From: Oceanobacillus sp. HTM 045
Lineage (GTDB): Bacteria; Pseudomonadota; Alphaproteobacteria; Rhodobacterales; Rhodobacteraceae
DNA: 64,000 nucleotides
Assembly (NCBI GenBank): GCA_009733745.1
Contig: WNWL01000004.1
Location: 1-64,000, forward strand
Direction of reading: 5' to 3'
This document shows, in pieces, positions 7,975 to 64,000 of the stretch. The position numbers were made by a program, and so were the translations under genes. Under the pieces are notes generated by a model. It was given only the letters and a program-made list of their open reading frames with translations, was not told the origin of the DNA and did no database searches. Positions within the stretch are counted from its first letter, which is position 1. Each line of letters starts with the position of its first letter.

Positions 7975-8013
7975 GGCGCGACGCTCCGATACGGGGGCGG
8001 CAGGGTCAAGAGG

Positions 8014-8660: not shown

Positions 8661-8786
8661 TCACATCGGGGTGGCAGAGGCTATAGTGCCGTGCAGCGCG
8701 TCTTGCAAGCCCGAGTTCTCACCAATCGCAAGGGGTGACGCGAGGGGAAGCTTTCCTTGGCCGCGCACCCCGTTAGATTGGAGCGT

Positions 8787-9650: not shown

Positions 9651-9750
9651 TTCGCGCGGCCGATCCGCGGCCTGCTTCGTTTTCCGGTTCTCCCGCTTTC
9701 GATCGAAGGTCCGCTCAGGGCGGAGCCCGGCCGGTCCAACCGGTGCGGGC

Positions 9751-9778
9751 AAAAAAAAGGGGCCGCACAAGGCGGCCC
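9751..9778 (-). terminator. Intrinsic terminator (minus strand): GGGCCGCC-TTGT-GCGGCCCC followed by T8
   Basis: Plus strand reads aaaaaaaaggggccgcacaaggcggccc. On the minus strand this is a perfect GC hairpin followed by eight U. It lies about 240 nt downstream of the dinB stop. Confidence 0.5.
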
Positions 9779-9893
9779 AAGTCTAAGGGAGGAAACGCCC
9801 AGGAAGGGCGGCAACGCCGAAGCGCTGCTGGATTGAGATTATGTGTGCGCCGCAACAAAGGCAATGGTGCAAAGCGAAAAAATCTTCCATTCC

Positions 9894-9916
9894 GGGGGTG
9901 GGTGCCCCTGTTTTTT
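9894..9916 (+). terminator. Possible weak intrinsic terminator (plus strand)
   Basis: GGGGG-TGGGTG-CCCC followed by TGTTTTTT. The stem is short (4-5 bp). Confidence 0.3.
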
Positions 9917-10017
9917 CGCTTAAATATTATGACGTTGCCGCAAAATTGTGCATCCGCGCTGCCGAACCGTGGGTGCCCTAACGTCAAGTTTGCGCTCGCG
10001 TCAATACGGGATGACGC

Positions 10018-47247: not shown

Positions 47248-47829
47248 TCACAACTCGCAGGCGAGGCCGAACTGTTCGGCGTGGTGGGTGAGCAGTTCCC
47301 ACATGTCCTGCGCGAAGGAGCGCATCACCCAGACCTCGTAGAAGGCCTCCGTGCGCAGCACGCGGGTGATCATGTGGTGCGCCTGGGTGGAGGCGAAGCT
47401 CATCGGAGGGAAGCTGCGCTCGCGCAGGTCGATCGGGCAGAGCCGGGCGATCAGGTCGGCGGCCTTCGGGCCGGTGACGCGCACGGCGCTGTCGTTGTGG
47501 GAGAGGTCGAGCGTCGCGCCCTCCTCCGGGTCGAGCGCGAGGGGGCATTCGGCCCCGTCCGGCCCCATGACCCAGTATTTCAGCGGCTCGACATGGGCGA
47601 CGAGGCGGTCGCCCGCCGCGGCCATCCGGCCCGGGGCGGGCAGGGCCTCGGCGCCGAGCGCGGCGGCGAGCTTTGCCGCGACGGCGTCGAACGTGCCGGC
47701 CCAGGGCGCGACCTGCCAAAGGCTGCCGCGGGGTGGCAGGGAGAGGGTGACGCCGGGGCCGCCGGCGCTCTCCGGGCCGTGGCGGCCCGCCCTGGCGATG
47801 CCCGCAAGGGGCTGCGTACGCTCAACCAT
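47248..47829 (-). CDS. soxG: Sarcosine oxidase subunit gamma
   Basis: SoxG family. 8-nt overlap with the soxA stop. Confidence 0.8.
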   Translation of the reverse strand: MVERTQPLAGIARAGRHGPESAGGPGVTLSLPPRGSLWQVAPWAGTFDAVAAKLAAALGAEALPAPGRMAAAGDRLVAHVEPLKYWVMGPDGAECPLALDPEEGATLDLSHNDSAVRVTGPKAADLIARLCPIDLRERSFPPMSFASTQAHHMITRVLRTEAFYEVWVMRSFAQDMWELLTHHAEQFGLACEL

Positions 47830-50800
47830 GCATCCGCCCTCCGTCCGGGTCGAAGAAATGCGGCGAGACGACCTTCACCTCGACCGACTTGCCGTCCACC
47901 GGGCTCTCGGCGAGGATAGTCTTGCCATCCCACTGGGTGAGGCCGCCGCGGACGAAGCCGAGGCCGATGCGCTCGCCCATCACCGGGCTGTCGGCGATCG
48001 AGGAGACCCAGCCGAGCCCGTCGCCAACCACCTCGCCCTGCGCGCAGAGGATCGAGCCGGCCTTCATCTGCTCGCCTTCCGTCACCGGGCGCAGGCCGAC
48101 CAGCGTGGGCCGGTCGCGCCGGGTCAGGTGCTCGCGCTCCTTCAGGACGGAGCCGATATAGGACTTCTTCTTCGATTCCATGCCGCCCAGCGCGCAGTCG
48201 GTGGCGGTGGTCCGCCCGTCCAGCTCGCGGGCGGTGACGTGGCCCTTCTCGACGCGCAGGATGTCGAGCGCCTCGAGACCGTAGGGCACGCCGCCCGCGG
48301 CCTGCACCTTGCGGAGCAGCGTCTCCCACATCGCCGGGCAGTAGTCGGCGGGGCAGAACACCTCCCACGCGCGCTCGCCGGAGAAGGAAAGCCGGGCCAC
48401 GCGGGCCGGCACGGTGCCGCCGCCGGCAACCTTCAGCATGCCCTCGCGGACGCCCATGAAGGGGAAGGCCTGGTCGGCGAAGTCGATGCCCTCGAACGCG
48501 TCCATCAGCACGTCGCGCGCTTTCGGACCCGCGACCGCCACGCCGCCCCAGTGGTCGGAGACCGACGAGATGTGGACGCGCAGGTCGGGCCACCAGGTCT
48601 GCAGCAGGTTGGCGAGGTGCAGCATGACCGGCCCCGCGTTGGCGGTGGTGGTGGTCATGAAGAACTCGGTCTCCGACAGGCGCCAGGTGGTGCCGTCGTC
48701 GAACACCACGCCGTCGACCCGGAGCATCAGGCCGTAGCGGGCCTTGCCGACGGGCAGCTTGGCGAAGGCGTTGGAGTAGACCCGGTTGAGGAACTCCGCC
48801 GCGTCCGGCCCCTGCACCTGGATCTTGCCGAGCGTGGAGACATCGACCATGCCGACCGTGTCGCGCACGATCCGTGCCTCGCGCATCGAGGCGGTCGTGA
48901 GGTTCTCGCCGGTCTTCGGGTAGTACCAGGACCGCTTCCACGCGCCCGCGTCGACGAACTTGCCGCCGAGCTTCTCGTGGGCGGCGTGCATCGGCGTGCG
49001 CCGGGTCGGGCGCCAGTGGGTGCCGCGCTCGGTGCCCGCGACCGCGCCCATCGAGATCGGCGTGTAGGGCGGGCGGAAGGTTGTGGTGCCGGTCTCCGGG
49101 ATGGTCTTGCCGGTGGCCTCGGCCATCAGCGCCATGCCGATGACGTTGCCGATCTTGCCCTGGTCGGTGGACATGCCGAGCGTGGTGTAGCGCTTCAGGT
49201 GCTCGACCGAGACATAGCCCTCACGCTCGGCGAGGCGCACGTCGTCGGCGGTGACGTCGTTCTGCGGGTCGACGAAGGACTTGAGCTTGGGCGCCTTGAC
49301 CCGGACCTCGTAGATCGGCTGCGTCTCGCCCGCGGGGCAGGCGGCGGGGGCCTTGCGCGACTTCGCGCCGCCCTTGCCGAGTGCCCTGAGCGCGGCCTCG
49401 GCCACGGCGCGGCCGGAGAGGGCGGCGCCCTCGGTATCGGGCACGCCCGCGGCGCTGCCCGCGACGTGGATCGGCTCGCGGCCCGCGTCGCCGGGCAGGA
49501 AGGCGAGGTGCCGGTCGCTCCAGACCGGCCTGACGCCGCGGTGCGAGAGCAGGTGCACGGCCGGGTTCCAGCCGCCGGAGACGGCGATGGTGTCGCAGCC
49601 GATCTCGCGCTCGGAACGGGCCTTGCCGCCGCCGAGATGGCGGCCGATCATCAGCCCGGTGACGCCGCGGCGGCCGTGCGCCTCGACCGGGACGTAGCCC
49701 TTGAGCAGGCGCACGCCGGCCTCGTCGGCCATTGCCGCGAGGTGGTCGGGGACGACCTCGCGCGGGTCGAGCAGGGTCACTTCGAGCCCCTTCTCGGCCA
49801 CGGAGGCGGCGTCGTCGTAGGCCTCGTCGTTGCAGGCGGCGTAGACGATCCGCCGCCCGGCGGCGACGCCGAACCGCTCGGCATAGGTGCGCACCGCGTG
49901 GCCAAGCATCACGCCGGGGCGGTCGTTGTCGCCGAAGGCGATCGGGCGCTCCAGCGCGCCGGTGGCCATGATCACGCGCCGGGCGCGGAGGATGCGCATC
50001 CGCTCGCGCGGGATGGCGTGGTGCGGGTCGACCATGTGGTCGGTGACGCGCTCGAGGCAGCCGACGACGCCGTGGTCGTAGAGGCCGAAGGCCGTGGTGC
50101 GGTTCCAGACCCGCCCGCCCTTGGAGGACAGCCCGGCGAGACGCCCGGCCTGCCAGTCCTCGACCGTGTCGCCCTCGACCGTGTCGGCGACGTTGGACAG
50201 GAGCGAGCCGCCGAGGGCGAAATCCTGCTCGATCAGGACCACGTCGAGCCCGGCCTGCGCCGCGGTCTCGGCGGCGGCGAGCCCGGCGGGGCCGGAGCCG
50301 ATCACCGCCACGTCGCAATGGTCGTTGACGATCTCGTAGTGGTCCGGGTCGGGCTCCTTCGAGGCGGAGCCCATGCCGGCGGCGCGGCGGATGATCTTCT
50401 CGAAGAACATCCACTCCCAGGTCTGCCGTCCGAGCACGCCCATGAAGGTCTTGTAATAGAAGCCCGCACCGAAGAACCGGCCCATCAGCGAGTTCACCGC
50501 GCCGACGTCGATGCGGACATTGGGCCAAGCGTTCTGGCCGAACGCCTCCAGCCCCTGGATCAGCTCGACCTGGGTGGCCTTGGCGTTGGGGATGCGCCGC
50601 GCGCCGCGCCAGAGATGCACCAGCGCGCCGGATTCCTCCACGCCCGCCGACATCACGCCGCGGGGGCGGTGGTACTTGAACGAGCGGCCGAGGATGCGCT
50701 CGCCGTTGGCCAGCAGCGCCGAGGCGAGCGTGTCGCCCTGGTAGCCGTAGTGCTGGCTGCCGTCCCACTCGAAGGCGAGGCGCTTGGCGCGGTCGATCCG

Positions 50801-50830
50801 GCCGCCGCGGGAAAGGCGGAACCCGCTCAT
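47822..50830 (-). CDS. soxA: Sarcosine oxidase subunit alpha
   Basis: 1002 aa. N-terminal 2Fe-2S/NAD(FAD) fold and C-terminal T-protein (GcvT)-like domain (..MGERIGLGFVRGG..). Confidence 0.95.
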   Translation of the reverse strand: MSGFRLSRGGRIDRAKRLAFEWDGSQHYGYQGDTLASALLANGERILGRSFKYHRPRGVMSAGVEESGALVHLWRGARRIPNAKATQVELIQGLEAFGQNAWPNVRIDVGAVNSLMGRFFGAGFYYKTFMGVLGRQTWEWMFFEKIIRRAAGMGSASKEPDPDHYEIVNDHCDVAVIGSGPAGLAAAETAAQAGLDVVLIEQDFALGGSLLSNVADTVEGDTVEDWQAGRLAGLSSKGGRVWNRTTAFGLYDHGVVGCLERVTDHMVDPHHAIPRERMRILRARRVIMATGALERPIAFGDNDRPGVMLGHAVRTYAERFGVAAGRRIVYAACNDEAYDDAASVAEKGLEVTLLDPREVVPDHLAAMADEAGVRLLKGYVPVEAHGRRGVTGLMIGRHLGGGKARSEREIGCDTIAVSGGWNPAVHLLSHRGVRPVWSDRHLAFLPGDAGREPIHVAGSAAGVPDTEGAALSGRAVAEAALRALGKGGAKSRKAPAACPAGETQPIYEVRVKAPKLKSFVDPQNDVTADDVRLAEREGYVSVEHLKRYTTLGMSTDQGKIGNVIGMALMAEATGKTIPETGTTTFRPPYTPISMGAVAGTERGTHWRPTRRTPMHAAHEKLGGKFVDAGAWKRSWYYPKTGENLTTASMREARIVRDTVGMVDVSTLGKIQVQGPDAAEFLNRVYSNAFAKLPVGKARYGLMLRVDGVVFDDGTTWRLSETEFFMTTTTANAGPVMLHLANLLQTWWPDLRVHISSVSDHWGGVAVAGPKARDVLMDAFEGIDFADQAFPFMGVREGMLKVAGGGTVPARVARLSFSGERAWEVFCPADYCPAMWETLLRKVQAAGGVPYGLEALDILRVEKGHVTARELDGRTTATDCALGGMESKKKSYIGSVLKEREHLTRRDRPTLVGLRPVTEGEQMKAGSILCAQGEVVGDGLGWVSSIADSPVMGERIGLGFVRGGLTQWDGKTILAESPVDGKSVEVKVVSPHFFDPDGGRMHG

Positions 50831-51147
50831 TCGGAGCCTCCCGTCGCTTTCTCAGTCGTCTTGGCCGCCGCTTTCCCGGTCGCCGCGGCCATGCCCGGAT
50901 GGGCCAGCTTCACCTCGGTGATCTCGTGGGTGACCGTGTCGCGGACCACCTCGAGGAACGAGCCGCAGCCGCCGACATGGCGCCAGAACTCGCGATGCGG
51001 CCCGCGCGGGTTCTCGCGCAGGAATACCGCCTCGTACCAGTCCTCCATCGGCGCATCGAGCGCAGGGTACTGCACGGTGGCGTCGCCCTCGTAGGTGAAC
51101 TCGCTGTGGTCGCGGAGCCCGCAGAAGGGGCAGTCGATCCGGATCAT
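50827..51147 (-). CDS. soxD: Sarcosine oxidase subunit delta
   Basis: MIRIDCPFCGLRDHSEFTYEGDA..., the SoxD zinc-finger-like family. 4-nt overlap with soxA. Confidence 0.9.
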   Translation of the reverse strand: MIRIDCPFCGLRDHSEFTYEGDATVQYPALDAPMEDWYEAVFLRENPRGPHREFWRHVGGCGSFLEVVRDTVTHEITEVKLAHPGMAAATGKAAAKTTEKATGGSE

Positions 51148-51160
51148 GTCCTCTCCCCCC

Positions 51161-52426
51161 TCAGTGGTGCTTGGGCACCGGCCCGCCGCCGCCCTCGTCT
51201 ATGTGCCGACCCTTGCGGTAGCGGTCGAGCGACAGGGGCGCGTTGATGTCGTGCGGGTCGTCATGGGCGATGGTGTGGGCGAAGCACCAGCCGGAGCCGG
51301 GGATCGCCTTGAAGCCGCCGTAGCACCAGCCGGCGTTGAGGTAGAGGCCGGGCACGTCGGTCTTGCAGATGAAGGGGGAGCCGTCCATCGACATGTCCAT
51401 GATGCCCGCCCATTGGCGCAGGATCTTCACCCGCCCGACCATCGGCATGATGTTCATGGCGCAGCCCGCCACGTCCGAATAGATCGGCAGGTTCCCCTTC
51501 TGGGCGTAGGAATTGTAGAAGTCGAGGTCGCCGCCGAACACCAGACCGCCCTTGTCGGACTGGCTGATGTAGAAATGCCCGTGGCCGACGCCGTAGACGA
51601 TGACGTGGTCCACCAGCGGCTTCAGCGGCTCGGAGACGAAGGCCTGCAGCTTGTGGGTCTCGATCGGCAGCCGCCCGAGCCCGGCCTTCGGCGCCAGCGT
51701 CGAGGTGGAGCCGGCAACCGCGAGGCCGACCTTCTCGGCCCGGATCTCGCCGCGGTTGGTGTTCACGCCCACGACCCGGCCGTTCTCGTGGATGAAGTCG
51801 GTCACTTCGCACTGCTGGATGATGTCCACCCCCAGCGCGTCCGCCGTGCGGGCGTAGCCCCAGTTGACCGCGTCATGCCGGGCGGTGCCGGCTCGCGGCT
51901 GCACGAAGGCGCCGATGATCGGGTAGCGCGCGTCCTCGCCATAGTTCAGGTAGGGGATGTTCTTGCGCAGCTTGTCGAGCGCCCACCACTCGCCGTCGAT
52001 GCCGGAAAGGCGCATGGTGTTGTAGCGCCGTGCCATCGCGTCGCGCTGGCCGGGCGAGAAGCAGAGGCTCACATGGGCCCGCTGCGAGAACATGACGTTG
52101 TAGTTCAGCTCGTGGCTCAGGTTCTCCCAGAGCTTCAGCGAGTGCTCGTAGAAGGCGCAGTTGCCCGGCATCATGTAGTTGGACCGGACGATGGTGGTGT
52201 TGCGGCCCGAGTTTCCGCCGCCGAGCCAGCCCTTCTCCAGCACCGCGACGCGGGTGATGCCGTGGTTCTTGGCCAGGTAATAGGCGGTCGCGAGGCCGTG
52301 GCCGCCGGCCCCGACGATGATGACCTCGTATTTCGGCTTCGGCTCCGGGTCGCGCCAGGCGCGGTCCCAGTTCTTGTTGCCGGTCAGGCCGTTCCAGAAG
52401 ACGTTGAGCGCGTTGTAGCGGCGCAT
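51161..52426 (-). CDS. soxB: Sarcosine oxidase subunit beta
   Basis: Start MRRYNALNVFWNGL..YEVIIVGAGGHGLATAYYL.. (FAD GXGXXG). The track ORF start 52948 is an over-extension. Confidence 0.9.
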   Translation of the reverse strand: MRRYNALNVFWNGLTGNKNWDRAWRDPEPKPKYEVIIVGAGGHGLATAYYLAKNHGITRVAVLEKGWLGGGNSGRNTTIVRSNYMMPGNCAFYEHSLKLWENLSHELNYNVMFSQRAHVSLCFSPGQRDAMARRYNTMRLSGIDGEWWALDKLRKNIPYLNYGEDARYPIIGAFVQPRAGTARHDAVNWGYARTADALGVDIIQQCEVTDFIHENGRVVGVNTNRGEIRAEKVGLAVAGSTSTLAPKAGLGRLPIETHKLQAFVSEPLKPLVDHVIVYGVGHGHFYISQSDKGGLVFGGDLDFYNSYAQKGNLPIYSDVAGCAMNIMPMVGRVKILRQWAGIMDMSMDGSPFICKTDVPGLYLNAGWCYGGFKAIPGSGWCFAHTIAHDDPHDINAPLSLDRYRKGRHIDEGGGGPVPKHH

Positions 52427-54582: not shown

Positions 54583-54705
54583 CTTGGGTGCGCTCCCTGC
54601 TTCGTGCTGCCGGCGCGACGCTAGCAGAGCGCGCGGCGGGCCGCGAGGGGTTGACCCGGCGGCGCTTCTCGTGACTCTCGCGCCGGTGCAGCGATGGAGG
54701 ACAGG

Positions 54706-55926
54706 ATGGCACGACTCTTCGACAACCGGTTCGCAGGCCCGCGCACCCGCGCCATCCACGCGGGCGAGCGCCCCGACCCGGCGACCGGCGCATCGAGCCC
54801 GAACATCGTCATGTCCTCGACCTATGTGACCGACAAGCCGGAGGGGTTCTCGGCCTACGAGATGACCGAGGACAGCCCGTTCGTCTATTCCCGCTGGGCC
54901 AACCCGACCGTGCGCCAGCTGGAGGAGAAGGTCGCGGCGCTGGAAGGCGCGGAGGCGGCGGCGGCCTATGGCTCGGGCATGGGTGCCGCGGCGGCGATCC
55001 TGTTCCGCGAGCTTTCCGCGGGGGATCACCTGATCCTGTCGGATGTGAGCTATGCCGGCATCGCCGAGTTCGCCCGCGACACGCTCCCGCGGATGGGGGT
55101 GGAGGTCAGCGCGGTCAACCTGACCCGGCACGACGACATCGCCGCGGCGATGCGGCCGAACACCCGGCTGATCTTCGCGGACACGCCCTGCAACCCGCTG
55201 ATGCGCCTGACCGATCTCGAGGCCGTGGCGAAGATCGCCCATGACGGCGGCGCGAAGCTGGCGGTCGACAGCACCTTCGCCAGCCCGGTTGCCACCAACC
55301 CGCTGGCGCTGGGCGTCGATTACGTGATGCACTCGCTGACCAAGTATATCGGCGGGCATGGTGACGCGGTGGGTGGCGTCGTCTGTGGCGGGCGCGACCT
55401 GATCCGCGGGCTGGTCTCGGAGGCGACGGTGCATTACGGCGGCGTGCTGTCGCCGTTCAATGCCTGGCTGATCTCGCGCGGCGCGGCGACGCTGCCGATC
55501 CGGATGCGCGCGCACCAGGAGACGGCGATGGCCGTGGCCGAGGCGCTGGAGGCGCATCCGGCGGTCGAGCGGGTGCTCTATCCCGGCCTCGCCTCGCACC
55601 CGCAGGCCGAGCTGGCCCGGCGGCAGATGAAGAACTTCTCGGGCATGATGACCTTTCGCCTCAAGGGCGGGCGCGCGGCGGGCGACACGGCGGCGGAGCG
55701 GATGGCGAAGGGGCTGAGCATCATCCACTACGCCGTCTCGCTCGGGCATCACCGCACGCTGGTCTGCTGGATACCGTCGGACGACATGATCCAGAACTCC
55801 TTCCGCCTCACAGGCCAGAACGCGGCCGACTACCGCGATTGGGCCGGCGACGGGGTGTTCCGCCTCTCCATCGGGCTGGAGGACGCGGACGACCTGATCC
55901 GCGATCTCGAGAGCGTGCTCGGATGA
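54706..55926 (+). CDS. Cys/Met-metabolism PLP-dependent enzyme (methionine gamma-lyase / cystathionine gamma-synthase family)
   Basis: ..SRWANPTVRQLEEKVAALEGAEAAAAYGSGMGA.. and SLTKYIGGHGDAVGG (PLP-Lys motif). GGAGGA RBS 5 nt upstream of the ATG at 54706. Confidence 0.9.
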   Translation: MARLFDNRFAGPRTRAIHAGERPDPATGASSPNIVMSSTYVTDKPEGFSAYEMTEDSPFVYSRWANPTVRQLEEKVAALEGAEAAAAYGSGMGAAAAILFRELSAGDHLILSDVSYAGIAEFARDTLPRMGVEVSAVNLTRHDDIAAAMRPNTRLIFADTPCNPLMRLTDLEAVAKIAHDGGAKLAVDSTFASPVATNPLALGVDYVMHSLTKYIGGHGDAVGGVVCGGRDLIRGLVSEATVHYGGVLSPFNAWLISRGAATLPIRMRAHQETAMAVAEALEAHPAVERVLYPGLASHPQAELARRQMKNFSGMMTFRLKGGRAAGDTAAERMAKGLSIIHYAVSLGHHRTLVCWIPSDDMIQNSFRLTGQNAADYRDWAGDGVFRLSIGLEDADDLIRDLESVLG

Positions 55927-56444
55927 ACCGGCGCGACCTGTTCGGCGGCTGGTACATGGGCTGGATCGCCCGGAGCCCGTATCTCGGGGCGCTCCTCGTC
56001 TATGCCGTGCTCGCAGTGCCGGTTTATTTCTTCGGCCGCGAGGTTCTGCCGCTGAAGGACAAGGATTTTGGCGAGTGGACCGCGCTGGTCCGCTTCACCT
56101 TTACCCTCGCGGCGGTGCTCTGGGTCGCCTTTACCATGAACCTGCTGGCCAAGCGGCTGCGTGATTCCGGGCTGCCGGGCTGGGCGCTGACCGGGCTGAT
56201 CTTCTTCGCGGCTTTTGCGGTGATGCGGTTCGGCTTCTGGGAGCAGCCCGCCTTTCTCGACGCGCAGGATCCCATCGAGGGCCTGCGCGCCTTCTCGCTG
56301 ACCGAGGCGATGTTCCCGGTGAAGTGGGAGGGGGTGATGTGGGCCGGGGTCGTCCACGCCGGCGCGCTGGCCGTCGCCGCGGTCTTTCCTACCGACTTCT
56401 TCCCCTGGGTGGTCGACCGCGACCGCTGGGCCGTGTTCGACTGA
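55923..56444 (+). CDS. DUF805-family inner-membrane protein
   Basis: Start MNRRDLFGGWYMGW.. overlaps the upstream TGA (ATGA). DUF805 signature ..NLLAKRLRDSGLPGW.. with 4 TM helices. Confidence 0.75.
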   Translation: MNRRDLFGGWYMGWIARSPYLGALLVYAVLAVPVYFFGREVLPLKDKDFGEWTALVRFTFTLAAVLWVAFTMNLLAKRLRDSGLPGWALTGLIFFAAFAVMRFGFWEQPAFLDAQDPIEGLRAFSLTEAMFPVKWEGVMWAGVVHAGALAVAAVFPTDFFPWVVDRDRWAVFD

Positions 56445-56450
56445 CCGCCG

Positions 56451-56855
56451 ATGCGCTGGTCCGATCCCTTCACCGGCTGGTTCGACGGCGGGATCGGGCG
56501 GTGGGCCTATGTGGGCTGGGTGCTGGTCTTCATCACGCTGAACCTTGCCACCGTCTTCGTGGCGGCCCTCGTCCAGCGCCAGACCGGATCGAGCATGCGG
56601 TCGGACGTGGTGATCGTCGCGCTTCTGCTGGTCCCGTTCTGGCTGAACCTCGACGCGAAGCGCTGGCGCGATGCGGGGCTGAACGGCTGGGGTATGGCGA
56701 TCCTCTTCATGATCGTCCAGAAAGGCGTTTCGTACCTCAGCGATAGCTTCTACGCCGGGGTCTTCATGTACGTCGCCGCCGCCTGCTTCCGTCCGGACCA
56801 GTTCGGCCACCGCGTGGAGCGGGAGCCGGTGGCGGACCCGGAGGTGTTCGACTGA
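56451..56855 (+). CDS. DUF805-family inner-membrane protein (tandem paralog)
   Basis: MRWSDPFTGWFDGGIGRWAYVGW...NLDAKRWRDAGLNGW.., the same family and motif as the upstream gene. Confidence 0.75.
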   Translation: MRWSDPFTGWFDGGIGRWAYVGWVLVFITLNLATVFVAALVQRQTGSSMRSDVVIVALLLVPFWLNLDAKRWRDAGLNGWGMAILFMIVQKGVSYLSDSFYAGVFMYVAAACFRPDQFGHRVEREPVADPEVFD

Positions 56856-57782
56856 ATGCCCATTATCTCCCCCCTGATCGCCGGCCTGGAATGGCTGGGG
56901 CGCTGGGCCCGCTGGGTGCTGCCGGCGGGCTGCGTGGCGGCGCTGGTGCTTCCGGGGCTGGCGGCGTTCCTGCGCCCGGCCTTCCCGTTCTTCGTGGTCG
57001 TCGTCTACATGCTGGCCGTGGCGCGGATCGACCTTTCCGCGGTGATGCGCGGGCTCGCCGGCGGCCGCCGGGCGTTCTGGCTGGTGGCGGGCACCGGGGT
57101 CGTCACCGTCGGTGGTGCGCTGGCGGGATGGGCGGCAATGCGCCTTCTCGGCCTGGGCGAGGAATACGAATTCGCGACCACGCTCGGGCTGCTGGCCCCG
57201 CCGATCGCGTCCTCCGCCGCGTTCTGCTTCCTGCTCGGGCTCAATGCCGCGCTGGCGCTGGAGATCACCGTCTGCGCCTCGCTGCTCTTTCCCTTCGTCG
57301 CGCCGCCGGTGGCGGCGCTGCTGGTCGGGGCGGAACTGCCCGTCACCCCGTTCCAGCTCGCGCTGCGGACCGCGGGGATCATCGCCGCGGGCGGGGTGCT
57401 CGGGATCGTCCTGCGCCGCTGGATGAGCCCCGCCCGCGTCGCCGCGCGCAAGGCCGCGTTCGATGGCGCGGGGGCGGTGGCCATGGTGCTGTTCGTCATC
57501 CCGCTGTTCGACGGAGTGGGCGAGATGGTGGCCGCGCGCCCGGTGCTCGCCGCGGGGTTTCTCGCCCTTTCTTGCCTCCTCGTGCTCGGACCGCAGATGG
57601 TTGTGCTGCGCGGCGGGGCGGAGGCGGGGGCCGTGGCGATGACGGCGGGAGTGCGTTCCGTCGGGATCGTCGTCGCGGCGATGCCGGGGGACGCGGTCTT
57701 CACCCTGTTCGCGGCGCTCTACCAGTTCCCGATGTACCTGCTGCCGCTGATCGTCGGAAGGCTCCGCCGGTCGCGCTTCTGA
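56856..57782 (+). CDS. Polytopic membrane transporter-like protein (BASS/AEC-superfamily-like, tentative)
   Basis: 308 aa with 8-9 predicted TM helices. ATG immediately follows the upstream TGA. Confidence 0.55.
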   Translation: MPIISPLIAGLEWLGRWARWVLPAGCVAALVLPGLAAFLRPAFPFFVVVVYMLAVARIDLSAVMRGLAGGRRAFWLVAGTGVVTVGGALAGWAAMRLLGLGEEYEFATTLGLLAPPIASSAAFCFLLGLNAALALEITVCASLLFPFVAPPVAALLVGAELPVTPFQLALRTAGIIAAGGVLGIVLRRWMSPARVAARKAAFDGAGAVAMVLFVIPLFDGVGEMVAARPVLAAGFLALSCLLVLGPQMVVLRGGAEAGAVAMTAGVRSVGIVVAAMPGDAVFTLFAALYQFPMYLLPLIVGRLRRSRF

Positions 57783-57907
57783 GCCCGCTGCAGCGCATAC
57801 CGCCATGCATGAAAAAATGCCTGCGCTGCCGCGGAAAATCGAGCAGATTCCGCGGGACAAGCGGTGCTGTTCGGTTAGGGTAGCACAGTCAGAAACAGGG
57901 GAATCCC

Positions 57908-60772
57908 ATGCCGCCGCTGGACGAGCCCGCGCTCGATCTCTCGCCCAAGGTCTCGGACGAGGTCCGCAAGACGACCTGCTACATGTGCGCCTGCCGTTGC
58001 GGCATCGACGTGCACCTGCGGGAGGGGGCGGACGGCTCGGTGAAGGTGCGCTATATCGAGGGCAACCGCGACCACCCGACCAACCGGGGCGTGCTCTGCG
58101 CGAAGGGCTCGGCCGGGATCATGCAGCACTACTCCCCGGCGCGGCTTCGGAAGCCGCTGCTCCGCACTGGCCCGCGCGGCTCCGGCGAGTTCCGCGAGAT
58201 CGAGTGGGAGGAGGCGCTGGAGAAGGCCGTGGAATGGCTGAAGCCGATCCGCGAGTCCGACCCCAAGCGGCTGGCCTTCTTCACCGGGCGCGACCAGTCG
58301 CAGTCGCTGACCTCGTGGTGGGCGCAGCAATACGGCACGCCGAACTATGCCGCGCATGGCGGGTTCTGCTCGGTCAACATGGCCGCGGCGGGCATCTACA
58401 CGATGGGCGGCGCGTTCTGGGAGTTCGGCTCGCCCGACTGGGAGCGCGCCCGCTATTTCATGATCTTCGGCGTGGCGGAGGACCACGACAGCAACCCGAT
58501 CAAGCTCGGCATCTCGCGGCTGAAGGCGCGCGGGGCCAAGGTGGTCGGCGTGAACCCGGTGCGCACCGGATACAACGCCGTCGCCGATGAGTGGGTCGGG
58601 ATCACGCCGGGGACGGACGGGCTGTTCATCCTCGCGCTGGTGCACGAGCTGCTGCGCACCGGCCATGTCGATATCGACTACCTGACCCGCTACACCAACG
58701 CGCCCTGGCTGGTGAACCGCAGCCCCGGCGAGAGGTTCGGCCTCTTCGCCCGCGACGAGAAGGGACGCCCGCTGGTCTGGGACACGGCCACGGGCCAGCC
58801 CGCCCGCTGGGACGCGCCGGGCGTGGTGCCCGCGCTCAAGGGCGACTTCGCCGGGCCGGACGGGGGGCGGGTAACGCCCGTGCTCGAACTCATGGCGCGG
58901 AAGTACCTGGAGCCCGAATACGCCCCCGAGACGGTGGCGGAGGCCTGCGGGATCGACGCCGCCACCATCCGCCGCATCGCTGCCGAGCTGGTCGAGGCCG
59001 CCTTCGAGCAGGAGGTGGTGATCGAACGGCCCTGGACCGACTGGAAGGGCGAGCGTCACGAGCGGATGATCGGCCGCCCGGTCGCCTTCCACGCCATGCG
59101 CGGCATCTCGGCCCATTCCAACGGGTTCCAGACCTGCCGGGCGCTGCACATCCTCCAGATCCTGCTCGGCAGCGTCGAGACGCCGGGGGGCATGCGCTTC
59201 AAGCCACCCTATCCGAAGCCGGTGGAGATCCACCCCACGCCGCACAGCCGCACCCAACCGGGCGGGCCGCTCAACGGGCCGCATCTCGGCTTCCCGCGCG
59301 GGCCGGAGGATCTCTGCTACGAGGAGGACGACTGCTCGCCCGGCGGCTGCTGCGCGCGGATAGACAAGGCGTTCACCTGGGAGAACCCGCTCTCGGCCCA
59401 CGGGCTGATGCACATGGTGATCTCCAACGCCGCCGCGGGCGACCCGTACGAGATCGACACGCTGTTCCTCTACATGGCCAACATGGCTTGGAACTCGTCC
59501 ATGAACACGCGCGGCGTGATGGACATGCTGACGGCCAAGGGGGAGGACGGGGAATACCGGATCCCGCACATCATCTACTCCGACGCCTATTCCTCCGAGA
59601 TGGTCGCCTATGCCGACCTCGTGCTGCCCGACACCACCTACCTGGAACGGCACGACTGCATCTCGCTGCTCGACCGCCCGATCTCCGAGCCGGATGCCGC
59701 GGCGGATGCGATCCGCTGGCCGGTGGTGAAGCCCGAGACGCAGGGCGAGGGGCGCGACGTGCGCGGGTTCCAGACGGTGCTGATCGACATCGGCGCGCGG
59801 CTCGGCCTGCCCGGCTTCGTCGATGACGAGGGCAAGGCGAAATACGCCGATTATGCCGACTACATCGTCAACCACGAGCGCCGGCCCGGGGTCGGCCCGC
59901 TGTTCGGCTGGCGCGGCGAGGGCGAGACGACCGGGCGGGGCAGGCCGAACCGCGACCAGCTTGCGCGCTACGTCGCCAATGGTGGCTTCCACACCGCCCA
60001 TGTCCCGGAGGAGGCGGCCCATTTCAAGCCGTGGAACGCCGCCTACCAGGACTGGGCGGTCGAGATGGGCTTCTTCGACAAGCCCTCACCCTATGCCTTC
60101 CAGCTCTATCTTGAGCCGCTCCGCAAGTTCCAGCTCGCGGCGGAGGGGCACGGGCCCCGCCAGCCGCCCGACCACCTGCGCGAGCGGATGCAGCTCACCT
60201 TCGACCCGCTGCCGGTCTGGTACCCGCCTTTCGCCGATGCGGACGAGGCCGAGTACCCGCTCCACGCCATCACCCAGCGTCCGGCGGCGATGTACCATGC
60301 CTGGGGCTCGCAGAACGCGTGGCTGCGCCAGATCCACGGCGAGAATCCGCTCTATGTGCCCGCGCAGGTCTGCAACGATGCGGGGCTTGAGGACGGCGAC
60401 TGGGCATGGGTGATCTCGCCCCACGGCCGGATCAAGGTGCCGGTGCGCCGGATGCAGGCGGTGAACCCGAAGACGCTCTGGACCTGGAACGCCATCGGCA
60501 AGCGCGGCGGCGCATGGGCGCTGGGCGAGGGCGCGCCGGAGACGACGCGCGGGTTCCTCCTGAACCACCTGATCCACGAGTTGCTGCCGCCCAAGGGCGA
60601 CGGCCTGCGCTGGGCGAACTCCGACCCGATCACCGGTCAGGCCGCGTGGTATGACCTCCGCGTCCGGATCGAGAAGGCCGAGCCCGGCGAGGTCTCGGAG
60701 CCGCACATGGAGGATCAGGAGTCACCCGTGGGGCAGGGGCCGGACAAACTGGCCTACGGGGAGGAGTGGTAG
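57908..60772 (+). CDS. Molybdopterin (Mo-bisPGD) oxidoreductase catalytic subunit, DMSO-reductase family, no Tat signal
   Basis: N-terminal FS0 cluster motif TCYMCACRCG...VLCAKG. MopB domains throughout, 954 aa. The N-terminus MPPLDEPALDLSPK.. lacks an RRxFLK motif. RBS CAGGGGA. Confidence 0.9.
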   Translation: MPPLDEPALDLSPKVSDEVRKTTCYMCACRCGIDVHLREGADGSVKVRYIEGNRDHPTNRGVLCAKGSAGIMQHYSPARLRKPLLRTGPRGSGEFREIEWEEALEKAVEWLKPIRESDPKRLAFFTGRDQSQSLTSWWAQQYGTPNYAAHGGFCSVNMAAAGIYTMGGAFWEFGSPDWERARYFMIFGVAEDHDSNPIKLGISRLKARGAKVVGVNPVRTGYNAVADEWVGITPGTDGLFILALVHELLRTGHVDIDYLTRYTNAPWLVNRSPGERFGLFARDEKGRPLVWDTATGQPARWDAPGVVPALKGDFAGPDGGRVTPVLELMARKYLEPEYAPETVAEACGIDAATIRRIAAELVEAAFEQEVVIERPWTDWKGERHERMIGRPVAFHAMRGISAHSNGFQTCRALHILQILLGSVETPGGMRFKPPYPKPVEIHPTPHSRTQPGGPLNGPHLGFPRGPEDLCYEEDDCSPGGCCARIDKAFTWENPLSAHGLMHMVISNAAAGDPYEIDTLFLYMANMAWNSSMNTRGVMDMLTAKGEDGEYRIPHIIYSDAYSSEMVAYADLVLPDTTYLERHDCISLLDRPISEPDAAADAIRWPVVKPETQGEGRDVRGFQTVLIDIGARLGLPGFVDDEGKAKYADYADYIVNHERRPGVGPLFGWRGEGETTGRGRPNRDQLARYVANGGFHTAHVPEEAAHFKPWNAAYQDWAVEMGFFDKPSPYAFQLYLEPLRKFQLAAEGHGPRQPPDHLRERMQLTFDPLPVWYPPFADADEAEYPLHAITQRPAAMYHAWGSQNAWLRQIHGENPLYVPAQVCNDAGLEDGDWAWVISPHGRIKVPVRRMQAVNPKTLWTWNAIGKRGGAWALGEGAPETTRGFLLNHLIHELLPPKGDGLRWANSDPITGQAAWYDLRVRIEKAEPGEVSEPHMEDQESPVGQGPDKLAYGEEW

Positions 60773-61597
60773 GTGCGGACCCACACCGTCACCGGCCATG
60801 GCGGCGTCCGCCTGCACGTCCGCGACACCGGGCCGGAGGATGCGACGGCGATCATGCTGATCCACGGCTGGTCGCAGCACCACCTTTGCTGGTCGAAACA
60901 GATGAAGGGGCCGCTGGCGGAGCGGTTCCGCCTGGTCGCCCCGGACTTGCGGGGGCATGGCGCGAGCGACAAGCCCGAGCCTCCCGTCGGCTATGAGACC
61001 TCCGAACCGTGGGCCGGCGACGTTGCAGCCATCATCGGAACCCTTGGCCTCCGGAAGCCAATCCTCGTCGGCTGGTCGATGGGCGGCTGGGTGATCGGCG
61101 ACTATCTCCGCCATCACGGCGGCGGGGCACTCGGCGGGGTCGCCTTCGTCGGCAGCCGCCTGATCCCGGTGCCGGGCGTGAAGCTCCGCCCCGAGGCGGC
61201 GGCGGAGGGGATGTATTCGGAGGACCAACCGACCGCGCTGGCCGCCTGCATCGACTTCGTGAAGGCCTGCTTTGCCGCCCCGCTCTCCAAGCGCGACCTC
61301 GCGCTGATGGTGGGTTTCAACATGCTGGTGGACCCGAGGGTCCGCCACGCCTGCCGCACGCGGGGCGAGGACTATTCGGCCGAACTGGCCGGGATCACCG
61401 TTCCCGTCATGCTGATCCAGGGTGCGGCCGAGCGGGTCTGCCTCACACCCTTCTTCGAGGCGCTGACCATCGCCCTGCCGGAGGCCGAGGCGCATGTCTA
61501 TCCCGGCTGCGGCCACGGGCCGTTCTGGGAGAACCCCGAGCGCTTCAACGCCGACCTTGCCGCCTTTGCCGAAAGAGCCTTCCGGACCGCAACATGA
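60773..61597 (+). CDS. Alpha/beta-hydrolase fold protein
   Basis: GTG start right after the alpha-subunit TAG, with GGAGGA RBS. ..IMLIHGWSQHH...VGWSMGGWV.. (nucleophile elbow GWSMG) ...GCGHGPFWENPE. Confidence 0.8.
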   Translation: MRTHTVTGHGGVRLHVRDTGPEDATAIMLIHGWSQHHLCWSKQMKGPLAERFRLVAPDLRGHGASDKPEPPVGYETSEPWAGDVAAIIGTLGLRKPILVGWSMGGWVIGDYLRHHGGGALGGVAFVGSRLIPVPGVKLRPEAAAEGMYSEDQPTALAACIDFVKACFAAPLSKRDLALMVGFNMLVDPRVRHACRTRGEDYSAELAGITVPVMLIQGAAERVCLTPFFEALTIALPEAEAHVYPGCGHGPFWENPERFNADLAAFAERAFRTAT

Positions 61598-62334
61598 CCT
61601 CCTTGCCCAAGACCACCGAGAAGAAGCTCGGCCTCGTGATCGACCTCGACATCTGCGTCGGCTGCCATGCCTGCGCGGTCGCCTGCAAGGAATGGAACAC
61701 CGGCGCCTACGGCGCGCCGCTCTCCGACCAGGACGCCTACGGCGCGGAGCCTGAAGGGACGTGGCTCAACCGCATCCATTCCTACGAGGTCACCCCGCGG
61801 GAGGGCGCGGCGCAGATCGTGCATTTTCCGAAGTCCTGTCTCCACTGCGAGGACGCGCCCTGCGTGACCGTCTGCCCCACGGGGGCCAGCTACAAGCGGC
61901 AGGCCGACGGGATCGTGCTGGTGAACGAGGATGCCTGCATGGGCTGCGGCCTCTGCGCCTGGGCCTGCCCCTACGGCGCGCGCGAGATGGACGCGGCTGC
62001 CGGGGTGATGAAGAAATGCACCCTCTGCGTCGACCGGATCTACAACGAGAACCTCGCGGAGGAGGACCGGGTGCCCGCCTGCGTGCGTACCTGCCCCGCG
62101 AACGCCCGCCATTTCGGCGACTTCGCCGACCCCGACAGCGAGGTGAGCCGCATGTCCGCCGCCCGCGGCGGCATGGCGTTGATGCCGGAGCAGGAGACGA
62201 AGCCGGTCAACCGCTACCTGCCCCCGCGCCCGAAGGATGGAGCAGGTGCGCCGGTGCGTCTCGCCGAACTGGCGGAGCCGGAGGCGAAGGGTTTCCTCGG
62301 CTGGCTCGACAAGGCGCTGGCGAGGCTCGGCTGA
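61594..62334 (+). CDS. 4Fe-4S ferredoxin-type iron-sulfur subunit (DmsB-like)
   Basis: Four Cys clusters (CVGCHACAVAC, CLHCEDAPC, CMGCGLCAWAC, CTLCVDR..CVRTC). The ATG overlaps the hydrolase TGA (ATGA). Confidence 0.9.
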   Translation: MTSLPKTTEKKLGLVIDLDICVGCHACAVACKEWNTGAYGAPLSDQDAYGAEPEGTWLNRIHSYEVTPREGAAQIVHFPKSCLHCEDAPCVTVCPTGASYKRQADGIVLVNEDACMGCGLCAWACPYGAREMDAAAGVMKKCTLCVDRIYNENLAEEDRVPACVRTCPANARHFGDFADPDSEVSRMSAARGGMALMPEQETKPVNRYLPPRPKDGAGAPVRLAELAEPEAKGFLGWLDKALARLG

Positions 62335-63245
62335 TGCACCCGGCTCCTTCAATCATCGTATTTACCGTGCTCTCGGGGCTCGGCCTCGGGCTGGTCTTCT
62401 GGCTCGGGCTGGACCTCGGCCCGGACTGGGGTGCATGGCGCTGGGTCGCCTGTGCGCTGGCGCTGGTGCTGGCGGGCGGGGGCGGGGTCGCCTCCGTCGG
62501 GCACCTGCAGAACCCGAAGAACGCCTGGCGGGCGTTCAGCCAGTGGCGTTCCTCCTGGCTATCGCGCGAGGGGTGCCTGATGGTCGCCGCTCTCGGCCTC
62601 TTTGCGCTTTACGCCGCGCTCTGGTGCCTCGCGGACCTGCGCCTCTGGGGCCTTGGCCTGCTGGCCGCGGGATTCGCGCTGGCGACCGTCTACGCCACGG
62701 CGATGATCTACGCGCAACTCAAGACGGTGCCGCGCTGGCACCTGACGCCGACGCCCTGCCTGTTCCTCGCCTCGGCGCTGGTCGGCGGCCTGCTGGCATT
62801 CGGCGCGGCGCGCGGGGTGACGGGAGCGGGCTTCCCGACCGGCGCGGCCTTCCTCGCGCTGCTGGTTGCGGCGGGCATCGCCGTCTGGTGGCAGACCGCC
62901 GCCGCCGGGGCGCGTCGCATCGCCGCCGGTTCCTCGATGGAGACGGCCACCGGCCTCGGTTCCATCGGCCGCGTGCGCCCCTTCGAGCCGCCGCATACCG
63001 GGCCGAACTACCTGCTGCGAGAGATGGCGCATGTCGTCGCTCGCCGCCGCGCGTACCAGATCCGTCTGATCGGCGCGGTCCTCGGCTTCGCGGTGCCGCT
63101 CCTCTTTACCCTGCTGGCGTGGGTCGCGGGCGACTGGGCACTGGTCCCGGCCTTCCTCAGCCATGTCCTCGGGATGCTCGCACTGCGCTGGCTGTTCTTC
63201 GCCGAGGCCGAGCATGTGCAGGCGCTTTACTACGGGGCGCGATAG
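62334..63245 (+). CDS. DmsC-like membrane anchor subunit
   Basis: 303 aa, about 8 TM helices. The ATG overlaps the FeS-subunit TGA by 1 nt. Confidence 0.75.
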   Translation: MHPAPSIIVFTVLSGLGLGLVFWLGLDLGPDWGAWRWVACALALVLAGGGGVASVGHLQNPKNAWRAFSQWRSSWLSREGCLMVAALGLFALYAALWCLADLRLWGLGLLAAGFALATVYATAMIYAQLKTVPRWHLTPTPCLFLASALVGGLLAFGAARGVTGAGFPTGAAFLALLVAAGIAVWWQTAAAGARRIAAGSSMETATGLGSIGRVRPFEPPHTGPNYLLREMAHVVARRRAYQIRLIGAVLGFAVPLLFTLLAWVAGDWALVPAFLSHVLGMLALRWLFFAEAEHVQALYYGAR

Positions 63246-63303
63246 CGGCAGGGCAGGAACCCTGGGAAGGGCGGGCTGTCCGGCCGCAGGTCTGGCCCGG
63301 CCG

Positions 63304-64000
63304 TCATTCCGCCGCAGGGGTCTCGGTCTCCGTTCCCGTCTCGTCCTTCGGGCGCGGGACCGTTTCCTCGCCTTCGGTGGCGAGGGCGAGGTGGATGCGG
63401 AAGAAGCTGGTGTTGTCGTCGGCGAACTCCAGCGTCAGATCCCCGCCCATCTTGCGCATGATCGCGCGGCTGATCGGCAGGCCGAGGCCGGAGCCGGTGC
63501 CGTGCGCGGCGCGGGAGCCGCGGGTGAACTTCTCGAAGATCGAGACCGCTTCCTCGCGGCCGACGCCGCCGCCATTGTCCACCACGTTGATCACCAGCAT
63601 CCCCTTGCGGATGACGGAGGTGACCTCGACCGTGGGCTCGGCTGCGGCATTGTACTTCACCGCGTTGGAGACCAGGTTGATCAGGACCTGCCTGAGCCGG
63701 TCCTCGTTGGCGCGGACGCGCACGCCTTCCGGCCCCGGATTGTGTCGCAGTGCGACACCGGAGGTCCGGGCGATGGGCGAGACGGTGTCGATCGCGGCGC
63801 GAATGGAATCTTCCGGGTCCACCGGGCCGAGCGGCAGGCGGATCGCGCCGGACTCGAGTCCCGAGATGTCGAGGATCTCGTCGAGCAGCCGGGTCAGCCG
63901 CAGGCTTTCCTCCTGGATGATGCGGATGAAGCGGTTCCGGTCCTCCGGGCCGATCTGGTCGTCGGCTAGCAGCAGTTCGGAGAAGGACCGGATCGAGGTC
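63304..64000 (-). CDS. Sensor histidine kinase, C-terminal HATPase_c part (gene continues beyond the window end)
   Basis: ..RQVLINLVSNAVKYN...VVDNGGGV...GTGSGLGLPISRAIMRKMGGDL.. (N, G1, G2 boxes). The stop is at 63304. The HisKA portion lies past position 64000. Confidence 0.75.
   Translation of the reverse strand, partial: TSIRSFSELLLADDQIGPEDRNRFIRIIQEESLRLTRLLDEILDISGLESGAIRLPLGPVDPEDSIRAAIDTVSPIARTSGVALRHNPGPEGVRVRANEDRLRQVLINLVSNAVKYNAAAEPTVEVTSVIRKGMLVINVVDNGGGVGREEAVSIFEKFTRGSRAAHGTGSGLGLPISRAIMRKMGGDLTLEFADDNTSFFRIHLALATEGEETVPRPKDETGTETETPAAE

Follow-up and report, generated by a model that had tools for sequence, protein, structure and literature searches.

A probable SoeABC-type sulfite:quinone oxidoreductase gene cluster with an alpha/beta-hydrolase gene between soeA and soeB

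The DNA analysed here (the window) is a stretch of 64,000 nucleotides with a G+C content of about 70%, corresponding to positions 1 to 64,000 of contig WNWL01000004.1 (assembly GCA_009733745.1, Oceanobacillus sp. HTM 045, placed in the Rhodobacteraceae by GTDB); all positions in it are given in window coordinates. Near its end lie four consecutive genes, for a catalytic subunit of the molybdenum-bis(pyranopterin guanine dinucleotide) (Mo-bisPGD) type, an alpha/beta hydrolase, a subunit with four iron-sulfur (FeS) clusters and a membrane anchor, which are called here soeA, the hydrolase gene (hyd), soeB and soeC (Table 1). With a probability of about 0.8, their products are a sulfite:quinone oxidoreductase of the SoeABC type and one accessory enzyme. 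The gene set was confirmed by open reading frame (ORF) listing, third-position G+C content (GC3) and the junction sequences. The GC3 is 0.93 for soeA and 0.88 for the hydrolase gene, and hundreds of homologues were found; this is a real gene set and not a statistical signal.

The start codon of soeA is preceded by a ribosome-binding site. The GTG of the hydrolase gene abuts the TAG stop codon of soeA, has GGAGGAG upstream of it and matches the N-termini of homologues. The stop codon of the hydrolase gene overlaps the start codon of soeB (ATGA), and the stop codon of soeB overlaps the start codon of soeC (TGATG). The four genes are translationally coupled, and the tight coupling of the hydrolase gene to both neighbours, pointed out in an earlier reading made from the letters of the window (the sequence-only reading), stands. 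A scan of 56800-63600 for promoters and terminators gave nothing informative.

SoeA starts MPPLDEPALDLSPK and carries the motif of an FS0 [4Fe-4S] cluster, C24-x2-C27-x3-C31-x32-C64, the first cysteine being residue 24. Its Pfam domains are Molybdop_Fe4S4, Molybdopterin and Molydop_binding. The 954 residues and the N-terminal position of the cysteine motif agree with the Mo-bisPGD subunit of about 105-110 kDa that is typical of SoeABC. No extension bearing a twin-arginine (RR) motif is possible upstream of the ATG, since an in-frame TAG nine codons 5' of it excludes a longer, signal-bearing N-terminus. Residues 17-20 of SoeA align to positions 42-59 of the profiles of PhsA, DmsA, FdnG and NapA, which are exported by the twin-arginine translocation (Tat) pathway, and this offset indicates that the signal segment is absent from SoeA. 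The sequence-only reading was therefore right in describing a 954-residue alpha subunit with the FS0 cysteines and no twin-arginine motif; the upstream in-frame start with an RR motif that it had named as a point to check does not exist.

The placement of SoeA among curated families was examined with NCBIfam models. The best curated match was to PhsA (NF012032; 187.8 bits, cut-off 694, E 2.5e-55), mainly over residues 19-264, and it was far below the cut-off. Scores were 105.5 bits against the dimethyl sulfoxide (DMSO)/selenate family TIGR02166 (cut-off 777.7), 92.3 bits against TtrA (cut-off 1750), 81.2 bits against ArrA (cut-off 1600) and 52.3 bits against DmsA PRK14990 (cut-off 1600). Membership of the DmsA, PhsA, TtrA, ArrA, FdnG, NapA and NarG families was rejected, every score being far under the curated cut-off. 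With all NCBIfam scores so low, no tight clustering with DmsA or TorA was found; the sequence-only reading had named such clustering as a point to check. The closest solved relative is PsrA of Thermus thermophilus (E 2.8e-37), with a good alignment only over the N-terminal ~250 residues. Cys154 of SoeA aligns with the cysteine of the LCTAP segment in this protein (2vpw), which we take to be the Mo ligand, and Cys154 is accordingly a putative Mo ligand.

The matches to PhsA and PsrA, together with the same subunit composition, would fit a cytoplasm-facing reductase of the Psr/Phs/Ttr type, working on polysulfide, thiosulfate or tetrathionate in the reductive direction. The window cluster shares with PsrABC and PhsABC (T. 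thermophilus, 2vpz; Salmonella) the three-subunit layout, an anchor with eight transmembrane (TM) segments and the aligned Mo-ligand cysteine. However, the scores against PhsA and TtrA lie far under their cut-offs, and PsrA aligns well over only part of SoeA. The Psr, Phs and Ttr enzymes are Tat-exported, periplasmic and, like PsrABC and PhsABC, reductive, whereas the window enzyme has no signal, its alpha subunit is ~190 residues longer, and its anchor shows the opposite charge bias and is predicted to be inverted (see below). The gene context in relatives of the window cluster is, moreover, sulfite-generating. A reductase of this kind is considered most improbable.

SoeB starts MTSLPKTTEKKLGLVIDLD, without RR, so that neither peripheral subunit carries a Tat signal. 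Its 246 residues include 16 cysteines in four ferredoxin motifs, as in the four-[4Fe-4S] subunit of ~27 kDa found in SoeABC. It matches Pfam Fer4_11 and DmsB-, NrfC- and DsrO-like NCBIfam models, all of the latter below cut-off; among the NCBIfam models, that for DmsB scores highest (133.7 bits vs a cut-off of 214.1). SoeC matches Pfam DmsC (44.8 bits), and its hydropathy profile contains eight hydrophobic segments. The four-cluster FeS subunit and the DmsC-type anchor with eight TM segments were thus recognised correctly in the sequence-only reading. The likeness to E. coli DmsABC lies in this anchor and in the best match of the beta subunit; the window cluster is unlike DmsABC in its alpha subunit (52-105 bits vs cut-offs of 778-1600), in lacking a Tat signal and in its predicted cytoplasmic orientation.

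Under an N-in/C-in arrangement, SoeC would have 17 Lys and Arg residues on the cytoplasmic side, in the loops TM2-TM3, TM4-TM5 and TM6-TM7 and in the C-terminal tail, vs 2 on the periplasmic side. An N-in/C-in topology is predicted from this distribution, with the docking loops on the cytoplasmic side. By this charge bias, the loop that follows TM2, with its conserved HLQNPKNAW...SWLSRE sequence, is assigned to the cytoplasm; its counterpart in anchors of the PsrC and DmsC types is turned towards the side on which the FeS subunit docks. For SoeC of known systems, an orientation opposite to that of other NrfD-like subunits is expected (PMC8076601). All three window subunits fit a complex that is put together on the cytoplasmic side of the membrane. 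The missing signal and the bias of 17 vs 2 bear out, as predictions, the suggestion that the catalytic subunit faces the cytoplasm; as for the anchor, the eight TM segments were retained and the periplasmic-type orientation was replaced by the predicted N-in/C-in one.

A cytoplasmic alpha subunit, a four-cluster FeS subunit and an NrfD/DmsC-type anchor make up the defining architecture of SoeABC (PMC8076601, PMC6335251, PMC4334477). SoeABC is a membrane-bound Mo/FeS/NrfD-like complex, with SoeAB at the membrane's N-side, that oxidises cytoplasmic sulfite with quinone as the electron acceptor; the first proposal concerned Ruegeria pomeroyi, genetic proof came from Allochromatium vinosum, and the complex of Aquifex aeolicus has been characterised (PMC6335251, PMC8076601). 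The window cluster is like SoeABC in its three subunits (Mo-bisPGD with FS0, four-[4Fe-4S], and a haem-free NrfD/PsrC/DmsC-like anchor with eight TM segments), in their order A-B-C and in the absence of a Tat signal, and also, by prediction, in having cytoplasmic peripheral subunits and an anchor inverted with respect to PsrC and DmsC. Because SoeABC is oriented to the cytoplasm, a twin-arginine signal is not needed, and none is present. The sequence-only reading had treated a cytoplasmic alpha subunit within a periplasmic-type architecture as a conflict. This combination is a hallmark of SoeABC, with the anchor predicted to be inverted to match, and the identification as SoeABC removes the apparent topological anomaly. 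SoeABC of A. vinosum (Alvin_2489-2491) is said to have been described by Dahl and colleagues in 2013 and that of A. aeolicus by Boughanemi and colleagues in 2020, and the R. pomeroyi complex (SPO3557-3559) was reportedly the subject of a poster by Lehmann and colleagues in 2012. The core cluster adds one member to a known family, and a DmsABC-like set without a Tat signal is unsurprising to a specialist. The window cluster is unlike the described SoeABC operons in having a hydrolase gene, coupled on both sides, between soeA and soeB, and unlike the R. pomeroyi type in that no xsc, pta, dsr or hdr gene adjoins it.

For the comparison of orthologous clusters, genomes were scanned with SoeA, using one genome per species. 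This gave 80 loci with an alpha subunit 68-76% identical to SoeA; 76 genome loci had sequence downstream of soeA. Genome and metagenome loci retrieved for comparison are designated by L-numbers. In nearly all of the 80 loci with enough sequence, the alpha orthologue is followed by a beta subunit (70-81% identity) and an anchor (41-71%), and SoeB is 70-86% identical to the product of the gene after soeA, or after the hydrolase gene, in related loci. The protein database holds thousands of full-length relatives of SoeA (939-969 aa), and those with a named source are mostly from Rhodobacterales and other Alphaproteobacteria. Among the best 120 matches, the protein names are mostly generic (molybdopterin oxidoreductase family), the exceptions being two 'formate dehydrogenase' labels and names given by the Joint Genome Institute (JGI). 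One relative with 74% identity (P0082) has the JGI name 'sulfite dehydrogenase (quinone) subunit SoeA', a name derived from KEGG Orthology (KO).

SoeA is 68-69% identical to its counterparts in Ruegeria loci. Upstream of soeABC in Ruegeria atlantica (L041) are genes for a MocR-type regulator (tauR), xsc (908 bits, cut-off 676) and pta (366 bits, cut-off 311), and this tauR-xsc-pta-soeABC order matches the published order in R. pomeroyi, namely tauR (SPO3562), pta (SPO3560), soeA (SPO3559), soeB (SPO3558) and soeC (SPO3557) (PMC4334477). Through the Ruegeria loci and the R. atlantica synteny, the window genes are orthologous to a cluster to which the name soeABC has been assigned (R. pomeroyi SPO3557-3559). 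This orthology and the xsc, pta, tauE, tauR and tauA-like genes beside the clusters of relatives point to sulfite as the likely substrate; by analogy with the family, sulfite would be the substrate and quinone the acceptor. The statement in the sequence-only reading that no substrate can be named was therefore too strong.

The embedded gene encodes a protein that matches Pfam Abhydrolase_6/1, with no signal peptide and no TM segment in its sequence. Its probable catalytic triad is formed by Ser102 (GWSMGG), His248 (GHxPFWE) and Glu220, and HGW is the oxyanion motif. Ser102, His248 and HGW are invariant among 38 homologues. At the acid position, at least 90% of them have Glu220, and L018 and L023 have Asp; the triad is kept down to 37% identity. 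An AlphaFold model built on the homologue alignment had a predicted local distance difference test score (pLDDT) of 95.1 and a predicted template modelling score (pTM) of 0.93. The closest fold was that of a 'putative aryl esterase' of Burkholderia cenocepacia (4x00; TM-score 0.94, 33% identity), followed by the Rhodococcus carboxylesterases RoCE (7yii) and RhEst1 (4rnc), with TM-scores of 0.88-0.91. The aryl esterase/perhydrolase PFE of Pseudomonas fluorescens (1va4) and cofactor-free haloperoxidases (CPO-L, 1a88) gave 0.83-0.86. Identity to the three closest comparators is 33-35%.

Like these small esterases and haloperoxidases, the hydrolase has a GxSxG elbow, an HG motif, a catalytic His and a helical cap. 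Like AidH, it has Glu and not Asp as the probable catalytic acid; structures of the AidH E219G mutant were among the fold matches. The fold, the Ser-His-acid triad and the GxSxG and HG motifs, as seen in the sequence and the model, place it in the aryl/carboxyl-esterase and perhydrolase subfamily, and it is predicted to be a soluble, cytoplasmic and catalytically competent serine hydrolase of this small type. The residues conserved only in hydrolases linked to soe genes include W33 (beside the oxyanion hole), A64, Y148 and L185. To our knowledge, the natural substrates of the aryl esterase/perhydrolase comparators are mostly not known, and we know of none of the comparator esterases and haloperoxidases that is linked to a molybdoenzyme or to sulfur metabolism. 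A role of the embedded gene as a chaperone of the TorD/DmsD/NarJ type was ruled out by the alpha/beta-hydrolase fold and the intact triad. TorD-family chaperones are all-helical and have no catalytic triad.

The hydrolase gene is absent from ~70 of the 76 genome soe loci, where soeA is followed by soeB directly or after a short spacer. In Rhodovulum sp. YNF3179 (L010, 60% identity), in a Rhodobacteraceae metagenome-assembled genome (MAG; L018, 41%) and in Nioella ostreopsis Z7-4 (L023, 37%), it separates soeA from soeB. In a Neomegalonema MAG (L003), soeA is followed by a glutathione S-transferase (GST)-like gene (3084-3720) and the hydrolase gene (70% identity over the part present), at which the contig ends. 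The protein database contains 682 hydrolase homologues at E <= 1e-10, of which the best 120 are 49-67% identical. At least eight of these 120 come from contigs equal in length to the contig of one of the best SoeA matches. Seven of these homologues (50-65% identity) were looked up, and all seven are encoded directly upstream of soeB-soeC. The gene orders are tauR-xsc-pta-soeA-hyd-soeB-soeC (L165), pta-tauE-soeA-hyd-soeB-soeC (L167), xsc-soeA-hyd-soeB-soeC (L083), and soeA-hyd-soeB-soeC after a tauA-like ATP-binding cassette (ABC) transporter gene and an aminotransferase gene (L082). In L081, two small ORFs lie between soeA and hyd-soeB-soeC; L168 starts with the end of soeA, followed by hyd-soeB-soeC. 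L084 has hyd-soeB-soeC (8001-10613), with no soeA within 8 kb and a DUF1045 gene on the opposite strand.

A scan of metagenomes with the hydrolase alignment gave two further homologues, of 53% identity and with downstream sequence (L085 and L123), both linked to soe genes. In L085 (226-2560), a RibD-C-like gene, and not soeA, overlaps the start of the hydrolase gene, and soeBC lie downstream. In L084 and L085, soeA is either encoded elsewhere or lost, the hydrolase gene being retained with soeBC. Around 40 metagenome homologues of 25-44% identity, mostly from soil, had no soe genes nearby. Downstream DNA was available for 12 of the 14 clusters found with a hydrolase of at least 50% identity, the window included, and in all 12 the hydrolase gene is directly upstream of soeB. 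The 4-nt start/stop overlap between these two genes occurs in 7 of the 12 clusters, whereas the junction of soeA with the hydrolase gene is more variable; across these loci, the tightest operon partner of the hydrolase gene is soeB. These contexts are a sample and not a census.

The order soeA-hyd-soeB-soeC is thus a recurrent minority operon variant, present in about a dozen independent alphaproteobacterial and metagenomic clusters. As the sequence-only reading stated, the hydrolase gene is foreign to the canonical operons for DMSO, trimethylamine N-oxide (TMAO), tetrathionate and polysulfide reductases, and it is also missing from most orthologous clusters. The co-occurrence analysis proposed there shows a gene that recurs in soe clusters, as a minority variant, so that it is not absent from all of them. 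A search of the searchable literature gave no description of a hydrolase or esterase in soe operons; the matches concerned tetrathionate and thiocyanate hydrolases and unrelated esterases.

Two of the related loci differ from the window in the spacing of their genes. In the closest relative, L081 (alpha subunit 79% identical), the overlap between hyd and soeB is kept and a gap of ~700 nt (7279-7984) separates soeA from hyd, which means that the tight junction of these two genes in the window is not universal; the small ORFs called in the gap encode 50 aa on the reverse strand and 90 aa on the forward strand. In L082 (5138-8001), the called soeA is short (883 aa), 211 nt separate it from hyd, and the tblastn match extends no further than query residue 881, which points to a frameshift, a misassembly or a truncated C-terminus.

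Trees were built by neighbour-joining only. All 13 soe-linked hydrolases group together, and bootstrap support is 76% for a clade of the 11 that are at least 50% identical; once L018 and L023 are included, the support for the soe-linked group is only 31%. A single origin for all soe-linked hydrolases, those of L018 and L023 (37-41% identity) included, is unsupported at this value, and one or two recruitments are envisaged.

The sequence-only reading held that an ester, thioester or C-C hydrolytic step generates or consumes the true substrate of the molybdoenzyme. In this form, the cluster would encode a new cytoplasmic Mo-bisPGD oxidoreductase with an organic substrate made or consumed by the hydrolase. 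The tight coupling of the four genes, the intact triad and confident model of the hydrolase, and the lack of a curated model naming the alpha subunit would agree with this. However, the alpha (68-76%), beta (70-81%) and anchor (41-71%) subunits are closely matched in clusters that have no hydrolase gene, including soeABC of the R. pomeroyi type beside xsc and pta. Clusters with and without the hydrolase gene interleave on the SoeA tree, which makes a change of specificity unlikely, and the hydrolase-bearing clusters themselves adjoin xsc, pta and tauE, genes of sulfite release and export. The proposed hydrolytic step was found to be unsupported, with ~70 of 76 orthologous clusters doing without it, and an organic substrate is regarded as very unlikely.

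The hydrolase gene could also be neutral or opportunistic cargo at an insertion-tolerant junction, riding on the expression of the operon and with no biochemical tie to sulfite oxidation. Its patchy distribution on the SoeA tree and its absence from most soe clusters agree with this, as does the occupation of the same junction elsewhere by methyltransferase-like, LysE-like and GST-like genes, by a gene for a 199-aa protein and by one for a TM peptide. A pure hitch-hiker, however, would be expected to decay or to appear in other contexts too, whereas every hydrolase of at least 50% identity with downstream DNA is soe-linked (12 clusters) and none of the ~40 distant ones is. Other points against cargo are the 76% bootstrap support of the core clade, the conservation of the triad down to 37% identity, the start/stop overlap with soeB that recurs in 7 of 12 clusters, and the retention of the hydrolase gene with soeBC where soeA is elsewhere. 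We consider cargo possible but somewhat unlikely.

A stronger functional proposal is that the hydrolase serves a SoeABC variant as its dedicated fourth component, carrying out an unrecognised step in the handling of cytoplasmic sulfite, and that its clade arose once and has been kept only in soe operons for that role. We advance this tentatively and hold it to be unlikely as it stands. Possible steps are the freeing of coenzyme A (CoA) or of carriers from sulfite-derived acyl adducts, or a perhydrolase reaction that couples peroxide to the oxidation of sulfite. The perhydrolase idea is tied here to the induction of the R. pomeroyi soe genes by H2O2 (PMC9769926).

Several observations weigh against the assignment of the four genes to SoeABC and one functionally linked accessory enzyme. 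The name SoeABC comes from annotation, R. pomeroyi-type synteny and architecture, and not from a comparison with the SoeA sequences of A. vinosum or A. aeolicus. No SoeA, SoeB or SoeC model appears among the NCBIfam matches to the window subunits, and no recognised gene of sulfite production, and no xsc, pta, tauE, dsr or hdr gene, lies within ~25 kb of the cluster in the window. As to the hydrolase, ~70 of 76 orthologous clusters lack it; the clusters that have it are scattered among those that do not on the SoeA tree, which implies repeated loss or transfer; unrelated genes at the soeA-soeB junction fit a permissive insertion site as well as a functional link; and the present data give no indication of its substrate.

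In the SoeABC model, SoeA (Mo-bisPGD and one FS0 cluster) would oxidise sulfite to sulfate in the cytoplasm, and the four [4Fe-4S] clusters of SoeB would carry the electrons on to a quinone site in SoeC. This anchor would be inserted opposite to DmsC and PsrC, allowing SoeAB to dock on the cytoplasmic face. The sulfite would come from the catabolism of sulfur compounds or organosulfonates, the soe genes of relatives adjoining xsc, pta, tauE and taurine-transport genes. The hydrolase, co-translated with soeB, is taken to be a functionally linked accessory of the soeA-hyd-soeB-soeC variant because its group was found only in soe clusters, as sampled. It probably does not supply the substrate of the molybdoenzyme, since the enzyme of most lineages would work without it and the sulfite sources that we know of (Xsc, sulfo-lyases, rDsr and sHdr) are not serine hydrolases. 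Our best guess, made by inference only, is that it clears a small acyl ester or thioester formed as a side product in the generation of sulfite or of acetyl-phosphate/acetyl-CoA; CoA thioesters of sulfite adducts or acetyl esters might be examples.

In many sulfur oxidisers, and in marine bacteria that break down taurine, dimethylsulfoniopropionate (DMSP)-derived compounds and other organosulfonates, sulfite is converted to sulfate in the cytoplasm mainly by SoeABC. Its presence in the window predicts a sulfite-detoxifying, quinone-reducing activity for the organism. The locus is a known system with an operon variant that is undescribed in the searchable literature, the new element being a group of esterase-like hydrolases whose genes were found, as sampled, nowhere but directly upstream of soeB. 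Should the hydrolase take part in sulfite chemistry, a pathway that is usually shown with three proteins would gain a further one, and the 'perhydrolase/aryl esterase' class would acquire a physiological function; if not, the soeABC of this locus is an ordinary one and the extra gene is a passenger.

Table 1. Genes and other features of the window discussed in the text
Feature	Position	Strand	Description and basis
soeA	57908..60772	+	954 aa, ATG start; Mo-bisPGD catalytic subunit; ORF and sequence, Pfam, orthology
hyd (embedded alpha/beta-hydrolase gene)	60773..61597	+	274 aa, GTG start; Pfam Abhydrolase_6/1
soeB	61594..62334	+	246 aa; four-[4Fe-4S] ferredoxin subunit, no Tat motif
soeC	62334..63245	+	303 aa; haem-free NrfD/DmsC-type anchor, predicted 8 TM segments
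In-frame stop (TAG, 57881-57883) and ribosome-binding site (AGGGGA) ahead of soeA	57881..57907	+	read from the sequence
Gene for SBF/BASS-like membrane protein	56856..57782	+	308 aa; Pfam SBF 25.0 bits, cut-off 24.3
Genes for two adjacent DUF805 membrane proteins	55920-56444, 56451-56855	+	upstream of the SBF/BASS-like gene and soeA
Gene for Cys/Met-metabolism pyridoxal phosphate (PLP) enzyme	54694-55926	+	best match methionine gamma-lyase, 381 bits, cut-off 549.7; 2 kb upstream of soeA
Heterotetrameric sarcosine oxidase-like operon	47248-52399	-	DAO-family beta, delta-like ORF, 1002-aa alpha (SO_alpha_A3, GCV_T), gamma-like ORF

The gene next to soeA on its upstream side encodes an SBF/BASS-like membrane protein. 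L081 has a gene for a 64%-identical protein that is on the same strand as its soeA and ends ~110 nt upstream of it, and genes for proteins with 43-45% identity lie ~3-5 kb upstream of soeA in L021 and L001. Of the DUF805 and BASS-like genes of the window, only the BASS-like one has a same-strand counterpart upstream of soeA in L081. The product is possibly an associated transporter, and its membership of the unit is uncertain. Further upstream is the gene for a methionine-gamma-lyase-like PLP enzyme. DMSP plus H2O2 induces both megL and soeCBA in R. pomeroyi (PMC9769926), and, by analogy, the proximity of this gene to soeA may be non-accidental. The sarcosine oxidase-like operon has no evident link to the soe cluster. 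A histidine-kinase gene fragment lies downstream of the cluster, and genes for a Sel1 protein, a hot-dog-like protein, an acyl-CoA synthetase and an ABC exporter, as well as cobalamin genes, are also present in the region.

Other inserts were seen at the soeA-soeB junction of related loci; they were labelled by reading of the translations and not by profile searches. An S-adenosylmethionine (SAM)-methyltransferase-like gene of ~230 codons was found in L044 (9802-10515), L074 (9802-10596) and L075 (9790-10662), a LysE/RhtB-like exporter gene in L060 (9796-10583) and a gene for a 199-aa protein of unknown type in L053 (9802-10588); the GST-like gene of L003 precedes its hydrolase gene. As judged from these loci, the junction appears to be a hot spot, a recurrent site for small accessory genes.

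A regular-expression search for one further product of this junction, a single-TM peptide, gave no match in the window or in the 12 searched loci that carry the hydrolase gene. This conserved peptide of ~45-60 residues has its gene in the soeA-soeB spacer of at least 16 Rhodobacterales loci (L012, L017, L022, L024, L027, L029, L043, L053, L056, L058, L059, L060, L069, L070, L072 and L075), for example at 9805-10005 in L059 and 9826-10160 in L070. Its consensus is ..TLLxIAxFVxLxxGSF(I/V)WF(I/V)xTWDxxxEEPV... It is probably unannotated and might form a small fourth subunit.

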